From: a virus
Lineage: Duplodnaviria; Caudoviricetes
Strand: one strand, 5' to 3'
Length of the DNA stretch: 64,000 nt
Virus record (IMG/VR): IMGVR_UViG_3300025608_000017
Span: 20,154-84,153 of that record
The translations under genes and the position numbers were made by a program. Shown in pieces: positions 18,323-53,941 of the stretch. The notes beneath the pieces were generated by a model, which searched no databases, was not told the DNA's origin, and saw only the letters and a list, made by a program, of their open reading frames with translations. How positions within the stretch are numbered: position 1 is the first letter of the stretch; each line of letters starts with the position of its first letter.

Positions 18323-21300
18323 TTACACATTGAATTGGTAATTTGCGAACAGTACAAATTTCTCAACATCGCTGTTTTCTGTTTGTTTGACAATATATCT
18401 GTCTATATCGTAGTTGATTATTTTAGGATCAAAACCATAGTTTTTAATGTTATTGATTATACTTGCTGCTTCGCCAGGTTTGCAATAACAAATAGGTATA
18501 GCAGTTATGTAGTCTAATTCTTCAAATCCTGTTTGTGCAGTACGCATCCATAATGGAAGATAGTTTCTTTCTTCTTCGCCAATAGTTTTAATATTTGCTC
18601 TCATATTATCTATACTACTTATGTATCTAACAGAATCGTTTGATTGGCTAACATTGACAGCATTAGAATCTGTTTTAATAGTGTTGGTTTTAGGTCTAAA
18701 GCGATAAGGTTCGCTTTCTCCTTTTTGCAGTTCAATTGTTACTGTTCCGCCATCACGCACTGTAATTTCAAAATCTGCATCGTCAACATTAAGTTCTTCT
18801 TCAGCAGGCGCACGAGTGTCGATTATTATTTCGTCAGTTTGACCAAATACAAATCTTACAGTTGATCTAGTACCGATTGCTAATTGATTATACCCTGCAT
18901 TAAATCTAGTTGCATCGTCTACTACTGCATATTGTATACTATCTACAGTAATTTTTTCTTTGTTTTTTATTTTAAAACTTTCAGCCGTCTTTGTGTTAGC
19001 AACAGTCGAGTTTGCAGGATCTTTAACTTCTATATATACCACTTCGTATATTGTATCTGAAGTTGCACTTTCCTTTGCTACAGCACTTTTAATGTCGCCA
19101 AGTATATATTTTTTACGCTTGTGACCTTTAGCTGCCGCAGCAATAAATTTATCAATAGAAGCTGCTTCTACGCCTGCATAAACAAGCATATCTAAATTTT
19201 TCTGTATGCCGAACGTAGTATCGCTCGGTCGATAAATTTTATTAGGAGTAAACACTTCAGGGTTACTAATAAAGTTTTTATAGTAAGTTTTTTGATCTGT
19301 TGGTAGCATCGGACGCATGTAAATATCAGTATATTTCGTTCTATTTAAATCTACAACATTTAACGAAAATTCACGTTCAATTGCTGTATAGTTAAATCGA
19401 TCTCTTGCTTCAACTGTAAATTTATAGCTTCGGTCAAATGTAGTATCACCTGGTAAACTACCGTCCCAAGTAACTGCTAAATTTTCAAACGTGGTTAATC
19501 CAGGATTGTCAACAGTGCCAAACTGTCTTGGTGTACCAATTATTTCACCGTCGTAGTTAAGTGTTAGACCAAATGGCAGTTTTCCTGACTTTAAAGTATA
19601 AATCATAGCAGTGTCTGGCACTGTTGTTTCTGCTATTAATTTCAAAGTACTTGTAAAGTTAGCATTGATATTTCCTAAATCAGCAGGCGTAATCCAATTG
19701 ATATTACTATCAATTTCGCCAATTACACGCACTTCAAATGTTTTGACAGTACTAGGTATATCTATTTCATCATTAGATGCAACAATTAAATTCTTAAAGA
19801 AACTATCTTTAGCAAATAATGAAATACCTATATTTCTGCCATTATTCAATTGTGAAATTAGATTTTTATCTAAAGTTATTTTATCTTCGTTATCTCTTAT
19901 AAGAGTTGCAACTATATCACTACTGTCTGAACCTGCAAAAAAGTCTTGTATATTTGATCTTATTCTCGAATACGATGTACTAGGCACTCTAATACGCCAA
20001 TTTAAATCGTCGATTACTGTAATATATGCTGTGTCATTATATTCTGCTTCTAGTGCTTGCTCTGTTGCAGTAATTCTATCAGCTAAACTAAGATCTTCTA
20101 GTGTTTCTGCAACTTCTTGCCAGTTTGCACTTATGAAATCTAATTGTACAATACCCTCAACTAATATGTCGTCACCGAATTCGTCTTTTTGTGAAGCTGT
20201 ACTGTGCGATACTGTACATTGGTATATTTTTCCGTCGCCACCTGTCTCGATAGTATTGATAACATAATCGCCTATAAAATAATTTTCGTTTACTTCTATC
20301 ACTCGTGGAGAATATGCTGGCAAAAATGGATCATTGGCTGTAGTCTGAGTAACTTGCCACTCTATGTAAGGAGTAAATGTATTAAGAGTATATGTTTCTG
20401 TATTACTAAATCTTAATGTTCTATTAGTATATTTTGTTTTAGCTGCTTCTGTTAATCTACTAATAAAAATATGATCTTGCCCAACTGTTGCAGTTTGACT
20501 TAATTGTAAATTAATACTAGGAGCAAGTGTTTCGTCAACAAATATGATATCATAATCTGTATTTCTAGCATCAACGTTAGTAACTGTATATTGTCTTTTA
20601 CCTAACAGAATCTTTTTACCAACTAATTCAAATAGGTCATTGGTGCCGTCTATGTCGCCAGTTAAATCAATTTTATTAATTTTAAAACTATTATTGCCTA
20701 ATAATACATCTTCGTAAAAGTTTGCAAATATTGTAACTGTTTCTAAGTCTGTAGTTATTCTAGTTGCTCTCACAGTAAATCTATAATTTTGTGTAATAGC
20801 AGGCTGATAAGGAATGCGTCCGATAACTTCGCCAGTTTGACTGTCTAATTCCATTCCTGGAGGCAATTCACTTGGAGTGCCATCATCATTTACATCTTCG
20901 AGTGTGTAAACCACAACACCTTCTAATGTCCAGTTATCTACAATTTCTAAATATATTGTTGTATAATTATTTGCTCGTTTAAATCCTAAGTCCGTAGGTG
21001 TGATCCATACAGGAGTTCTTACATTTGTGTTATCAGCAGTAAATACACCTGTGCTTGCTTGCATAATGGTATTGTCTGCTTTTAAATAGTCATCGCCGAC
21101 TAGATAAATTTTAAATTCACGTCTTACAAAGTTTTCGCCGTCTGTAACTGTAACAGCAAACGGATAGTATCTATTTAATTTTCTTAGATTTGCAGTAGGT
21201 TCGTTATAATCAAAATCAACAGTGTCATAATAAAAACTACCGTAACCGTTTGAGCTGGTTACTGAATAGTCTATCGGAACGCCAGAGAATGGAGCACTAT

Positions 21301-50343: not shown

Positions 50344-50488
50344 CCCAATCAATCTTTTTATATTTAGGTTTCTTTTTGATCTTGTTACCAATTACTTTGG
50401 GACGGAAGGGACCGTTTGGATCCCTTACCGCCTTTGCTTCAAAGTTGCGTCTCTTTGGCGCTTGTGGCCTACGCAGATTTTTAGACAT
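50336..50488 (-). CDS. 50-aa basic peptide, ArfA-like (not in the ORF track)
   Basis: Manual translation MSKNLRRPQAPKRRNFEAKAVRDPNGPFRPKVIGNKIKKKPKYKKIDWDD; TAATG coupling; AAGGGT RBS. Confidence 0.7.
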   Translation of the reverse strand: MSKNLRRPQAPKRRNFEAKAVRDPNGPFRPKVIGNKIKKKPKYKKIDWDD

Positions 50489-51021
50489 TATCTTACCCTT
50501 AGTTCCTCAATATTAATCGGTGTGTAATCAATTTGTTCTACACAAACACATCTGTGGAACTCAGTTGGCGATGGATTCTGATGAATATGACCGTGTACGT
50601 TTGTCATACTGCCTTCACCAAATCTGTGACTCTCACCTAATGTACTGTTGTGTACAGGAACGTGTGTTAACAGCAACCCAAACTCAGGGAACATTCTCCA
50701 CAAGTCAATCTTGCCCCACCAGCCGCCAGCAACGTGAAACTTGATGTTGTCGTGGTTACCAACTACCAAACGCTTCTGTCCGTTTAGGCGAGGCATATTA
50801 GTGTCCATCCATTCTTGCTTGCGAGTGCCAAACAACACATCACCCAAGTGGTACACTTTGTCACCTGGCTTGACAACACTGTTCCAGTTGGCAATCATAG
50901 TCTCGTTCATTTCTTCAACATCTGCAAAGTTGCGAGTAGGTTTACCTACCTTGTCAGTGAAGGTTAGAATGTTAGCGTGATCAAAGTGTGTGTCACTGAT
51001 TATCCAAATATTTCTAGCCAT
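50488..51021 (-). CDS. calcineurin-like metallophosphoesterase
   Basis: SDTH, HLGD, GNHD, HGHIH. Confidence 0.92.
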   Translation of the reverse strand: MARNIWIISDTHFDHANILTFTDKVGKPTRNFADVEEMNETMIANWNSVVKPGDKVYHLGDVLFGTRKQEWMDTNMPRLNGQKRLVVGNHDNIKFHVAGGWWGKIDLWRMFPEFGLLLTHVPVHNSTLGESHRFGEGSMTNVHGHIHQNPSPTEFHRCVCVEQIDYTPINIEELRVR

Positions 51022-51050
51022 GTCATGACCCTCTTTATCTAATTTATATT

Positions 51051-51079
51051 AGTTTAGCTTAGATTAGCTTAGATGTCAA
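51051..51079 (-). promoter_or_regulatory. sigma70-type promoter (phosphoesterase operon)
   Basis: TTGACA-N17-TAAACT, directly after tRNA-Cys. Confidence 0.7.
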
Positions 51080-51086
51080 CCAGTAA

Positions 51087-51169
51087 TGGAGTGAGCGGCC
51101 GGACTCGAACCGGCATAGTCTTTCGACACGGATTTGCAATCCGATGCATAGCCTTTCTGCCACGCTCAC
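51087..51169 (-). tRNA. tRNA-Cys(GCA) with long variable arm
   Basis: GTGAGCG/CGCTCAC acceptor, TCGGA-TTGCAAA-TCCGT, V-arm GTC-GAAA-GAC, U73, CCA. Confidence 0.9.
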
Positions 51170-51173
51170 ATAA

Positions 51174-51248
51174 TGGCTGGGGTGGTAGGATTCGAACCTA
51201 CGGTACACTGGATCAAAACCAGTTGCCTTACCACTTGGCTACACCCCA
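51174..51248 (-). tRNA. tRNA-Gln(TTG)
   Basis: Cloverleaf, ACTGG-TTTTGAT-CCAGT, encoded CCA. Confidence 0.95.
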
Positions 51249-51251
51249 ATA

Positions 51252-51343
51252 TGGCGGAGAGTGTGGGATTCGAACCCACGGAACACTTTCATGTTCGACG
51301 GTTTTCAAGACCGTTGCATTAAGCCAGACTCTGCCAACTCTCC
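51252..51343 (-). tRNA. tRNA-Ser(TGA)
   Basis: ACGGT-CTTGAAA-ACCGT, long V-arm, G73, CCA. Confidence 0.95.
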
Positions 51344-51347
51344 TATA

Positions 51348-51424
51348 TGGTCTCGGTAGCTGGATTCGAACCAACGACCTCTTGTACCCAAAACAAGCGC
51401 ACTACCAGGCTGTGCTATACCGAG
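51348..51424 (-). tRNA. tRNA-Pro(TGG)
   Basis: CTTGT-TTTGGGT-ACAAG, CCA. Confidence 0.95.
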
Positions 51425-51429
51425 ATATT

Positions 51430-51505
51430 TGGTGAACCCGGTGCGATTCGAACGCACGACAAGCTGATTAAAAGTCAGCTGCTCTACCAACTGAGCTACG
51501 GGTCC
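51430..51505 (-). tRNA. tRNA-Lys(TTT)
   Basis: GCTGA-CTTTTAA-TCAGC, CCA. Confidence 0.95.
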
Positions 51506-51506
51506 T

Positions 51507-51582
51507 TGGCACCGGTGGAGGGATTCGAACCCCCGCGGACGCGGTTTTGGAGACCGCCGCTCTACCACTGAGCTACACCGAT
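51507..51582 (-). tRNA. tRNA-Trp(CCA)
   Basis: GCGGT-CTCCAAA-ACCGC, G73, CCA. Confidence 0.95.
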
Positions 51583-51605
51583 ATTAAACTTTTTACTTCC
51601 TCCAC

Positions 51606-51640
51606 AAAAAAAGCCCCTAAACAAGTTAATGCTTAGGGGC
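51606..51640 (-). terminator. intrinsic terminator upstream of the six-tRNA array
   Basis: GCCCCTAAGC-ATTAACTT-GTTTAGGGGC followed by T7. Confidence 0.92.
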
Positions 51641-51686
51641 GTATCTTAAATAACTTTTCTACAAAGTCGCGTTAAGACATACCCCT
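51635..51686 (-). promoter_or_regulatory. antiterminator hairpin competing with the terminator
   Basis: AGGGGTATGTCTTAA (51686-51672) pairs 14/15 with TTAAGATACGCCCCT (51649-51635), which includes the terminator 5' arm. Confidence 0.75.
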
Positions 51687-51740
51687 CCTTGACGGTGAGC
51701 ACCAATTCTGTAATGACGATTGTTGTACTGTCTTTAACAC
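51672..51740 (-). CDS. 22-aa attenuator leader peptide (not in the ORF track)
   Basis: AAAGGA-N8-GTG; MLKTVQQSSLQNWCSPSRRGMS; stop lies within the antiterminator 5' strand. Confidence 0.75.
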   Translation of the reverse strand: MLKTVQQSSLQNWCSPSRRGMS

Positions 51741-51766
51741 GTTATAATTCCTTTGTTGTATAACTT

Positions 51767-51795
51767 AATATACTATGTTTATTTATCTTTGTCAA
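51767..51795 (-). promoter_or_regulatory. promoter of the leader/tRNA operon, with embedded late motif
   Basis: TTGACA-N17-TATATT; GATAAATA inside the spacer. Confidence 0.8.
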
Positions 51796-51801
51796 CCACT
51801 A

Positions 51802-51825
51802 TTTGACAATTTAGATAGAATATTA
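51802..51825 (+). repeat. 24-bp exact inverted repeat, copy 1
   Basis: TTTGACAATTTAGATAGAATATTA is the reverse complement of 53223-53246. Confidence 0.95.
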
Positions 51826-52175
51826 AATAAGCAGTTTCTAGTCCTGCTTAGGACCGCCATCATCCTGGGCACCATTTGCTCAGTTGTTTTACAAGGGGAA
51901 CAAAACCCTTGATCCCGCTTTATCAGTGCGGTGCTGTCTGCTATACAGAACAGCGTGATTAATAGTGATAGGGAGGATTGCAGTCTACCTCCAACAACCT
52001 AGTAAGTATTATCATACGTTCGGTTGCGCCTAGTATCAAACAGTTACGTTCGAAATACACATCTTCGTGTCTCCACGCTCATGTGCTGCCACCACAGCTA
52101 CTAGCCAAGTTATCGTCCTTACGAAACGACATTTCCTTGCACTATCTTTTCAAACCCCGTCGGGTTGAAACCTTA
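51826..52175 (-). ncRNA. candidate structured ncRNA(s) of unknown class
   Basis: ~350 nt with no convincing ORF and many consecutive hairpins; lies between tRNA-Leu and the stalk repeat. Confidence 0.55.
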
Positions 52176-52182
52176 AAAACTT

Positions 52183-52267
52183 TGGTGCGCCTGGAGGGAC
52201 TTGAACCCCCACGCCGTAAAGCACTAGAACCTAAATCTAGCGTGTCTACCAATTTCACCACAGACGC
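52183..52267 (-). tRNA. tRNA-Leu(TAG)
   Basis: CTAGA-TTTAGGT-TCTAG, V-arm, A73, CCA. Confidence 0.95.
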
Positions 52268-52319
52268 AGTTGTAAGCTAACCGTTGGCTTACGTGAGCGT
52301 ATTGAGCCGCTACACTTAC

Positions 52320-52395
52320 TGGTGCCGCAACAAGGATTTGAACCCTGGACCTACTGATTACAAATCAGTTGCTCTACCAACTGAGCTATTGCGGC
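52320..52395 (-). tRNA. tRNA-Thr(TGT)
   Basis: ACTGA-TTTGTAA-TCAGT, CCA. Confidence 0.95.
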
Positions 52396-52396
52396 T

Positions 52397-52471
52397 TTAT
52401 CTTCTTACTTTACAGTTAGGACACCAATCTCCGTGTGCTAACTCTGTTTTACATTCACTGCATGTTGTCAT
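52397..52471 (-). CDS. 24-aa zinc-ribbon micropeptide (not in the ORF track)
   Basis: MTTCSECKTELAHGDWCPNCKVRR; ATAAGTA-N4-ATG. Confidence 0.6.
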   Translation of the reverse strand: MTTCSECKTELAHGDWCPNCKVRR

Positions 52472-52478
52472 ACAGTAC

Positions 52479-52700
52479 TTATTCAGGTGTTTCGTCTTCT
52501 TGTTCAATTTCGACTTGCAAAGATCTGATCATTTGTTCTTCTAAGTCTTGTTTGTTGATAGTTCCTGTTTCAAGCAAACGAAGTGCATCTGCTGCGCTTG
52601 ATGCTTGTCCTGAACGTTTTAGATATGCACATGCTGCAACCAAGTCAGTTCGGTTAATGCCTGTGACATCCATTGCTTCCTCAATAAAGACTCTTCCCAT
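52479..52700 (-). CDS. small hypothetical protein inside the tRNA operon
   Basis: 73 aa; AAAGG RBS. Confidence 0.65.
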   Translation of the reverse strand: MGRVFIEEAMDVTGINRTDLVAACAYLKRSGQASSAADALRLLETGTINKQDLEEQMIRSLQVEIEQEDETPE

Positions 52701-52737
52701 TTGTTGTAACCTTTCATTGTTACTTGTTATTGTAGTA

Positions 52738-52811
52738 TGGAGCGGGTAAGGAGAATCGAACTCCTATCATTAGCTTGGAAGGCTAAGGTCTTACCATTAC
52801 ACAATACCCGC
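52738..52811 (-). tRNA. tRNA-Gly(TCC)
   Basis: TTAGC-CTTCCAA-GCTAA, U73, CCA. Confidence 0.95.
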
Positions 52812-52814
52812 AAC

Positions 52815-52902
52815 TGGCAGAGAGACAGGGATTCGAACCCTGGGAACCTTTCGGTTCGGCGGATTAGTAATCCGCTGCCTTCGACCACTCGGCCACCTCT
52901 CC
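52815..52902 (-). tRNA. tRNA-Ser(ACT), unusual A34 anticodon
   Basis: GCGGA-TTACTAA-TCCGC, long V-arm GAACC-GAAA-GGTTC, G73, CCA. Confidence 0.92.
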
Positions 52903-52905
52903 ATT

Positions 52906-52980
52906 TGGCTCCCCAGGATGGGATCGAACCACCGACAAATTGATTAACAGTCAACTGCTCTACCGCTGAGCTACTGGGGA
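52906..52980 (-). tRNA. tRNA-Asn(GTT)
   Basis: GTTGA-CTGTTAA-TCAAT, CCA. Confidence 0.95.
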
Positions 52981-52985
52981 ATAAA

Positions 52986-53193
52986 CTCTACTTACAACTG
53001 CTAACAGTGCAGGAGTCGAACCTGCATGGCGGACCGCCGTCCTATTTGCTACACCGTGTAGTTAATGGGATTCGAACCCAACACCGCAACCCAACGGACC
53101 ACGGACTCGAACCGTGTTTACCTCACCAGTTATCTATTAGCATGTGTAAGTAGAGTTATGAATACATGTTGGTGCATGTATTCCTCTACTTAC
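52986..53193 (-). ncRNA. candidate tRNA-mimic / Y-RNA-like RNA with three T-arms
   Basis: Three GTTCGA(G/A/C)TCC T-arm hairpins inside a ~20-bp terminal stem; no anticodon arm or CCA. Confidence 0.7.
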
Positions 53194-53222
53194 CGTTCCA
53201 TCATCGACTTGCGTCTAAGAAC

Positions 53223-53246
53223 TAATATTCTATCTAAATTGTCAAA
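53223..53246 (-). repeat. 24-bp exact inverted repeat, copy 2 (leader)
   Basis: Complementary to 51802-51825 on the same transcript. Confidence 0.95.
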
Positions 53247-53250
53247 GAGC
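53239..53250 (-). promoter_or_regulatory. rrn-type boxA antitermination element
   Basis: GCTCTTTGACAA versus the E. coli rrn boxA TGCTCTTTAACAA; ~20 nt after the predicted TSS. Confidence 0.65.
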
Positions 53251-53277
53251 GTTGTAAACTTTTTAGCTTACTTAGTT

Positions 53278-53306
53278 ATAATAGCAGTTTATTTAGTTTC
53301 TGTCAA
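53278..53306 (-). promoter_or_regulatory. promoter of the upstream stable-RNA operon, with embedded late motif
   Basis: TTGACA-N17-TATTAT; CTAAATA inside the spacer. Confidence 0.75.
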
Positions 53307-53941
53307 CTGCTATTTTTAATATTTAGATATTTTTTATAAGATTCGTCAGTTGGCTTAAAAACAAAATTAATAATACAACGTTTGTCATTTTTGATAGGAT
53401 TACTACTTGCATGCAGTCTGTTGCTTTGAAACATTAATGCACTTCCTTTTTTAGGAGTATTAGAATGAACCATTGTTAGGTTATCATGCCCGTCTTCGAT
53501 GGCATACTTATCAAATATTCGAGTGTCGCCGTCTGCATCGTTGACATAGTAAACCATACTAAGACACTGGTCTCCCCCATAGTCAATATGAGGCTTATGG
53601 TAACTGTTTTCGTCACCCGTGCCTTTTGTTAGCAAATTTGATTTTATTCGTACAACATGTTCTGTTACAATTCCTGTCTCTTTTTCGAGGAACCATAAAA
53701 TTGGTTGTGCAATTTCTCCAAACAATTGATGAAGTATTCCTTCATCTGGAGTTACAAATGTATTGGTAAATTGATAAGTCTCGTTGATATTTTTATCGTT
53801 GGGATCGAAGTTATTGTCAACATCACTGGTTAGACCATTAAAAACCCATTGGCCGTGATTTATTAAACGTGTTTCAATCCAGTTTGCCATTCCTAAAGGA
53901 ACTAGATTATCAATTTCTTCATAATCAAAACGTTCAATCAT
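53303..53941 (-). CDS. 2OG-Fe(II) oxygenase-like protein
   Basis: PHID (HxD), MVYYVND.DGDT, PKKG..LMF...LHASS, RCIINF. Confidence 0.82.
   Translation of the reverse strand: MIERFDYEEIDNLVPLGMANWIETRLINHGQWVFNGLTSDVDNNFDPNDKNINETYQFTNTFVTPDEGILHQLFGEIAQPILWFLEKETGIVTEHVVRIKSNLLTKGTGDENSYHKPHIDYGGDQCLSMVYYVNDADGDTRIFDKYAIEDGHDNLTMVHSNTPKKGSALMFQSNRLHASSNPIKNDKRCIINFVFKPTDESYKKYLNIKNSS

Follow-up and report, generated by a model that had tools for sequence, protein, structure and literature searches.

An uncultured marine phage, represented by an 84-kb IMG/VR fragment (record IMGVR_UViG_3300025608_000017; CheckV completeness 23%), carries a short leader unit with its own promoter, a 22-codon open reading frame (ORF) and an intrinsic terminator upstream of six tRNA genes. 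The unit lies on the minus strand of the 64,000-nt stretch analysed here (positions 20,154 to 84,153 of the record), which we call the window and to which coordinates refer unless a contig is named. Comparative evidence makes it likely that the unit is a ribosome-mediated leader-peptide transcription attenuator gating the tRNA array, and it is probable that the phage produces these tRNAs only while the corresponding codons are being read slowly. An attenuator had been proposed from the window alone (the original prediction), and at the comparative level that interpretation is supported by codon/tRNA co-evolution, by the position of the signal within the leader and by a trp-like geometry. In a main set of 58 distinct, non-truncated elements from related phages, we counted sensor codons, those in the central part of the leader, that are cognate to the non-Trp tRNAs of the element's own array. 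There were 175, against 105.4 ± 7.6 under array permutation, and 0 of 20,000 permutations gave a count as high. The same excess was found in a replication set of 15 further, non-overlapping leaders that were anchored on the terminator (47 against 26.0 ± 4.5; 0 of 20,000). The original prediction had suggested looking in relatives for the same layout and for leader codons that track the tRNA set, and in both of these non-overlapping sequence sets the outcome was positive.

Within the window, the promoter, Shine-Dalgarno sequence, 22-codon ORF, strong terminator and six tRNAs of the original prediction were all found where it had placed them. The features of the locus, including the pairing segments used below, are as follows.

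51795-51767, minus strand: sigma-70-type promoter, with -35 TTGACA at 51795-51790, a 17-nt spacer and -10 TATATT at 51772-51767; 11 of 12 consensus positions match
51753-51749, minus strand: Shine-Dalgarno sequence AAGGA, 8 nt upstream of the GTG at 51740
51740-51672, minus strand: leader ORF, GTG start, 22 codons, TAA stop at 51674-51672
51741-51730, minus strand: segment 1, start codon and the next three codons; partner of segment 2
51728-51690, minus strand: sensor window, codons 5-17, holding the invariant Trp codon at 51704-51702
51686-51668, minus strand: segment 2, comprising a G-run, the last leader codons, the stop codon and 4 nt beyond; partner of segment 1 or segment 3
51667-51653, minus strand: small 5-bp hairpin between segments 2 and 3, present in both predicted states
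51649-51635, minus strand: segment 3, antiterminator partner of segment 2, overlapping the first 6 nt of the terminator 5′ arm
51640-51606, minus strand: intrinsic terminator, 11-bp stem 51640-51630/51623-51613 with 6 G-C pairs, 6-nt loop, T7 at 51612-51606
51582-51087, minus strand: putatively gated six-tRNA array, called by ARAGORN as Trp(CCA), Lys(UUU), Pro(UGG), Ser(UGA), Gln(UUG) and Cys(GCA)
51079-51051, minus strand: promoter-like site downstream of the array, for the next gene, a phosphoesterase

The leader ORF of the window is unusually rich in codons read by the tRNAs that follow it. The count given in the original prediction is right: of the 21 codons that follow the start, 11 are read by the six tRNAs, and within codons 6-17 the share is 10 of 12. 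Because the 11 cognate codons make up 14.4% of the codons in the phage's own genes, the binomial probabilities of these counts are 4.7e-5 and 1.9e-7, respectively, and among 13,041 windows of 21 codons in the phage's real genes not one holds 11 or more. It had also been claimed that all six tRNAs are represented in the leader. This needs correcting for Lys, which is matched only by AAG at codon 3, inside the start-proximal pairing segment; since this codon is conserved throughout the family with or without a downstream tRNA-Lys, it is not evidence of Lys sensing.

Relatives were first retrieved through the neighbouring phosphoesterase, independently of the leader sequence, and in these the leader unit precedes varied arrays, including Trp-Pro-Ser-Cys, Trp-Ile-Pro-Cys and Trp-Cys. 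A leader pattern derived from segment 2 recovered 97 IMG/VR contigs with promoter, Shine-Dalgarno sequence, ORF, hairpins and terminator followed by tRNA-Trp. With a terminator-only pattern further, more diverged leaders were found, for a total of more than 100 related phage contigs; the same pattern also retrieved ordinary gene-end terminators of this family, which served as a control. The gene for tRNA-Trp comes first in every family member, including two in which ARAGORN missed it and it was read by eye. Among 84 distinct regions upstream of tRNA-Trp in the loci collected, all but four have the leader and terminator. Of 183 arrays at the same loci that do not begin with Trp, a strong terminator stands just upstream of one, without a matching ORF.

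Several individual tRNAs contribute to the match between leader codons and arrays, each being significant on its own: Fisher p was 8e-6 for Ser(UGA), 4e-4 for both Cys and Gln, and 3e-4 for both Ile(UAU) and the tRNAs with a CAU anticodon. Common descent was addressed with a tree built from the flanks and tRNA-Trp, with the leader core left out. In phylogenetically independent pairs, leader codon and tRNA changed in the same direction in 21.1, in opposite directions in 0.2 and not at all in 25.7 (sign test p ~1e-6). While UGG is invariant in the leaders of this Trp-first family, the codons around it are not, and closely related leaders show what has been exchanged. L169 and L087 differ by two leader bases. 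One of these changes exchanges Cys for Gly at the codon before UGG, and the array has likewise exchanged tRNA-Cys for tRNA-Gly. Between L119 and L130 a single leader base changes a Pro codon to Ser UCA, and L130 has gained tRNA-Ser(UGA). Arg CGC codons take the place of the usual Pro codons in L215, where tRNA-Arg(ACG) is present and tRNA-Pro absent; L126 and L134 have Tyr codons and tRNA-Tyr in place of Cys; and the Glu and Arg codons of L091 correspond to its extra tRNAs. The CAU tRNAs are labelled Met by ARAGORN. Initiator identity was considered and ruled out by their normal G1-C72 pair, and the presence of AUA codons in the leaders of all seven arrays that carry them (7/7) hints at Ile (lysidine) rather than Met, two identities that sequence cannot separate.

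The matching is confined to codons -8 to +3 around UGG, which start 9-41 nt upstream of the G-run, and is absent in segments 1 and 2. Established footprint data put the leading edge of a ribosome roughly 12-13 nt downstream of where the A-site codon begins, so the lower limit of the matching window is close to what the attenuator model predicts, near the point from which a stalled ribosome would start to cover the antiterminator arm. The matching codons sit exactly at positions where stalling would keep the ribosome clear of that arm. The original prediction had cautioned that stalls at Pro16 and Ser17 might partly cover segment 2, and both codons do lie at the edge of the useful window.

A leader that is translated and controls termination might instead sense amino-acid supply, above all Trp starvation, or respond to peptide arrest at Trp-Pro-Pro, for example in an EF-P-dependent manner. 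A stalled ribosome cannot distinguish a missing amino acid from a missing tRNA. Furthermore, UGG and the Pro codons after it hardly vary, whether or not the array contains tRNA-Pro, and Pro-Pro motifs are known stalling sites. The regulated genes, however, are tRNAs, which would be unable to relieve amino-acid starvation, and an arrest peptide is difficult to reconcile with codons -8 to -1, +2 and +3, which switch among chemically unrelated amino acids with the tRNA set, or with L215, which is entirely without these Pro codons. We judge this explanation unlikely and regard decoding by the matching tRNAs as the better account of what the leader would read.

Several features indicate that the leader ORF is probably translated. 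The frame is kept from start to stop in 55 of the 58 distinct leaders, which come in five lengths (54, 57, 60, 63 and 66 nt), and the remaining three shift frame only downstream of the Trp-Pro core. AAGGA is found in 50 of the 58 and stands at a spacing of 8 nt from the GTG or ATG start in 42. Upstream, the TTG of the -35 and the TAT of the -10 element are invariant across a 62-sequence alignment (A2). The peptide is unconserved except where RNA pairing fixes the nucleotides.

RNA folding predicts two competing arrangements. In the minimum-energy fold of the window leader the start of the ORF pairs with its end (segments 1 and 2, or 1:2) and the terminator forms. In the alternative, the final 15 nt of the ORF bind the stretch 51649-51635, which takes in the first six bases of the terminator 5′ arm. 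The pairing at 14 of 15 positions that had been claimed for this duplex was confirmed, with two G-U pairs and a duplex energy of -17.6 kcal/mol; the whole 2:3 hairpin is predicted at -21.3 kcal/mol, against -18.6 for the terminator hairpin alone. The trp-like geometry of the original prediction thus holds, and the covarying helix between start and stop is an addition to it. That helix is well supported by compensatory change: the first base of the start codon is in an A-U pair in 44 sequences and a G-C pair in 18, and is unpaired in none, its partner lying beyond the stop codon. In the terminated state as a whole, 91.5% of alignment cells are paired, with a covariation score matched by 0 of 500 shuffles, and five pairs of the terminator stem show compensatory double changes within the family. 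The small 5-bp hairpin has 92.6% of cells paired. Because the search pattern prescribed its 5′ arm, the conservation of its sequence carries no independent weight; that it acts as a pause element is a guess.

For the antiterminator, 87.6% of cells are paired in the main helix. Part of segment 2 was likewise fixed by the first search pattern, a bias from which the terminator-anchored set is free. In that set an upstream G-run accompanies 19 of 19 tRNA-leader terminators, 17 within the preset distance and two slightly closer, compared with 1 of 23 gene-end terminators (Fisher p = 1e-8). Complementarity to segment 3 follows the same division, with medians of -14.6 and -12.5 kcal/mol in the leaders and -7.3 kcal/mol in gene-end controls (p = 5e-8). 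In the sequences compared, with that one exception for the G-run, the putative antiterminator arm is restricted to tRNA leaders.

On the basis of these features we propose the following mechanism. Host RNA polymerase would start at the consensus promoter, and a ribosome would load at the Shine-Dalgarno sequence and GTG and translate the 22-codon leader as the polymerase advances. If the sensor window is decoded quickly, the ribosome would reach the last codons or the stop and cover segment 2 with its G-run, and the terminator would form before tRNA-Trp is transcribed. If the ribosome has to wait at a sensor codon, which is always UGG plus the codons of the array's other tRNAs, segment 2 would remain free. 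A ribosome in the loop would also block the pairing of segment 1 with segment 2, and segments 2 and 3 could pair, holding the C-run at the base of the terminator stem and allowing readthrough into the tRNA genes. With no ribosome, 1:2 would pair, hiding the start codon, and the terminator would form. The predicted outcome is negative feedback, in which tRNAs are made when their own codons are decoded slowly. Co-transcriptional snapshots were modelled with the RNA cut before the terminator 3′ arm: the antiterminator was predicted in 55 of 55 members when the ribosome stood at UGG, but in 0 of 55 when it had reached the stop. That stalling would give readthrough is part of the proposal. We presume the physiological signal to be tRNA shortage. 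Its trigger may be cleavage of host tRNAs, for example by anticodon nucleases, their degradation as infection progresses to its late stage, or starvation; loss of tRNA rather than amino-acid starvation is the presumed cause.

A number of results weigh against this mechanism or narrow it. In full-length equilibrium folding, placing a ribosome at UGG still leaves the terminator favoured in 55 of 56 members, so any readthrough must be kinetic, by kinetic trapping, as in the trp operon. Since a kinetic switch cannot be judged from equilibrium folds, in all of which the terminator prevails, the snapshots were used to examine it instead. In ribosome-free snapshots 2:3 is preferred over 1:2 in 47 of 55 members, which makes a default 'off' state dependent on 1:2 folding first. 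Compensatory covariation in the 2:3 helix is not significant (its score was reached by 55 of 500 shuffles); the G/C core of the helix is invariant, and only 5-6 nt are shared with the 11-nt terminator arm. The codon match also runs in one direction only: arrays rarely contain a tRNA whose codon is missing from the leader, but codons for Cys and Pro can remain where the tRNAs are gone. No match was detected in the leaders for Lys, Arg(GCG) or, under strict wobble, Gly(UCC). With Lys not convincingly represented, the idea that all six tRNAs of the window are sensed can be put forward only as an inference. Searches of four metatranscriptome runs for window 50400-52400 returned fragmentary contigs only, mostly from relatives and without RNA ends, strand or level.

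The strength of the terminator, thermodynamically favoured in every modelled state, could also be read as a sign that nothing is regulated. The unit would then be a small peptide gene or a small RNA (sRNA) with its own terminator, the tRNAs being made by leaky readthrough and the codon match arising from ancestry or codon usage. The terminated RNA of about 150 nt has an sRNA-like shape, and the same terminator family closes ordinary genes in these phages. Neither ancestry nor codon usage sits well with the comparative data, since the independent-pair and replication tests show directional codon-to-anticodon matching and the changes swap amino acids rather than synonymous codons. A G-run facing the terminator arm is moreover specific to the tRNA leaders (1 of 23 gene-end terminators), and the peptide is not conserved outside the positions fixed by pairing. 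We find the absence of regulation very unlikely.

The logic of the switch could also be reversed or depend on Rho: stalling would uncouple ribosome and polymerase and lower tRNA transcription, so that the tRNAs stimulate their own synthesis. The geometry argues otherwise, as it puts a ribosome on the antiterminator arm only at the stop, and it is hard to see what would be gained from positive feedback on tRNA supply. Like Rho-loading sites, the sensor window has little G (15%) and much C and A; at only about 35-40 nt, however, it is too short for a typical site of that kind. Such logic appears highly improbable.

Direct binding of uncharged tRNA to the leader RNA in the manner of a T-box, with no translation, has the least to recommend it and very nearly no chance of being correct: UGG and a G-rich antiterminator superficially recall a specifier codon and a T-box bulge, but the element, with only about 135 nt between its start codon and its terminator, is much smaller than a T-box, Rfam finds neither a T-box nor another leader family, and frame preservation together with multi-codon matching points to ribosomal decoding. 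In the Rfam search, no leader family (Trp_leader RF00513, Thr_leader RF00506, His, Leu and others) matched the window at E up to 1, and T-box and ribozyme matches were absent from the window and the relatives examined. One relative, L177, scored 19.6 bits against Thr_leader, for which the gathering score is 55.

Attenuation of this kind would bear on the question of why phages carry tRNAs, which has been under debate for decades; the main proposals are that they compensate for codon usage, replace host tRNAs that are degraded late in infection, or allow escape from defences that cleave tRNA (PMC10264068, PMC11464382, PMC11555353). If our interpretation is correct, the tRNAs of these phages are conditional spares, expressed when their own codons are read slowly, and the leader states which decoding events the phage monitors, making the question directly testable. 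Leader-peptide attenuation would also be extended to tRNA genes, to viruses and to a set of sensor codons that is rewritten in evolution. More speculatively, the leader may serve these phages as a counter-defence sensor, a rewritable multi-codon meter of tRNA supply that is off while host tRNAs are intact and on when matching tRNAs are removed. The removers might be anticodon nucleases, PARIS, retron or Schlafen-type effectors, or the phage's own host shut-off, and a tRNA gene that joins or leaves the array would lead selection to add or remove its codon in the meter. We hold this wider proposal to be possible but doubtful. Such a leader could also be turned into a small, programmable reporter that shows how available a single tRNA species is.

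The leader unit belongs to a block that behaves as an accessory cassette. The relatives closest by phosphoesterase and ligase genes (L003, L005 and L012) do not have the promoter-leader-tRNA block at all, and similarity to them begins at window 51056 (51056-53400 compared). The source phage has a G+C content of 39%, encodes T4-type topoisomerase II subunits and a large ATP-dependent protease, and has been seen repeatedly in marine metagenomes. A second copy of the leader or of this terminator type was not found elsewhere in the whole 84-kb record, and the leader pattern is absent from 185,579 bacterial species genomes. Searches of GenBank phages in near and distant modes gave no match to the leader of the window. 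A type-B leader matched there through its terminator only, in Pelagibacter phage HTVC010P (L113:2497-2706, minus strand, against KC465898, a SAR11 podophage, positions 296-335; 90% over 41 nt of the terminator). This likeness may be a hint to host range; the same terminator family closes ordinary genes in many marine viral contigs.

Other stable RNAs and repeats were noted around the unit, in the window and in its relatives. In about 20 of the 84 distinct relatives, and not in the window, an element of 75-95 nt stands between the attenuator terminator and tRNA-Trp (for example L177:5838-5927, minus strand; L206:2032-2121, plus; L130:3985-4064, minus; L091:3320-3397, minus). It occurs in at least three sequence variants, has a closing 10-bp stem in which three pairs show compensatory changes, and has no Rfam match. 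The arrays of L087, L106, L158 and L169 include tRNAs called Ile(TAT) in which about 20 extra nt follow the anticodon stem, as either a long variable arm or an intron, and all tRNAs of these arrays have an encoded 3′ CCA. In the window, a perfect 24-nt inverted repeat (53246-53223 and 51825-51802, both minus strand) flanks an upstream stable-RNA block composed of a tRNA-like region, Asn-Ser-Gly, two small ORFs, Thr, Leu and a manA-like RNA. Because the 3′ half of the repeat stops 7 nt short of the -35 of the leader promoter, transcripts from an upstream promoter at 53306-53278 may also run into the attenuator. The manA-like RNA, between tRNA-Leu and the leader promoter (51962-52170, minus strand), falls just short of the Rfam threshold for the manA RNA motif (RF01745), scoring 54.8 bits where the gathering score is 55.2 (E = 8.5e-13). 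Three T-arm-like motifs occur at 52990-53170 (minus strand), none of them called as a tRNA by ARAGORN, and Rfam gave only a weak Y-RNA-like (YrlA) match in this region (52931-53050, 21.7 bits, E = 0.13). The tRNA-Ser called at 52815-52902 (minus strand) has the anticodon ACT (A34), and relatives show GCT at the same array position.

The author of the original prediction knew of no ribosome-mediated attenuator on a phage tRNA operon, and the literature outside subscription journals likewise gave no case of leader-peptide control of tRNA genes; in two papers on phage tRNAs the words attenuator, leader, terminator and promoter are all absent. The closest known system is the trpL attenuator of enterobacteria (RF00513; the class is modelled in PMC1183508), which shares a short leader ORF (in the phage probably translated), regulatory codons and a terminator before the structural genes, as well as four segments able to form 1:2, 2:3 and 3:4 (2:3 being a predicted helix in the phage), with stalling at the regulatory codons predicted to free segment 2. 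The trp operon controls amino-acid biosynthetic enzymes, whereas the phage leader would control tRNAs. Segment 1 of the phage leader holds the start codon, so that the 1:2 helix encloses the whole ORF, and its antiterminator reaches no further than the base of the terminator stem. Neither sequence nor model similarity links the two, and the context is a phage. Like thrL (Thr, Ile) and the ilvGMEDA and ilvBN leaders (Ile, Leu, Val), the phage leader would sample several amino acids for a single termination decision. It differs from them in sampling up to five or six codon families, mostly once or twice each and not in runs, and in a codon set that is rewritten as tRNA genes enter or leave the array. 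The pheST attenuator of E. coli offers a parallel in which a leader peptide reports charged tRNA and controls a component of the translation machinery, but pheST is chromosomal, responds to one amino acid and controls a synthetase rather than tRNA genes. T-box riboswitches also sense tRNA status through a terminator/antiterminator switch; they bind uncharged tRNA directly and without translation, and their conserved parts are absent from the phage leader. Short Cys-codon ORFs in mycobacteria similarly report decoding speed and control downstream genes, but they are reportedly leaderless, control cysteine metabolism operons and have no link to tRNA genes (bioRxiv 10.1101/834739). As far as its sequence allows a judgement, the phage element works like a trp-type attenuator but belongs to no described family, and it would control tRNA genes in a virus.

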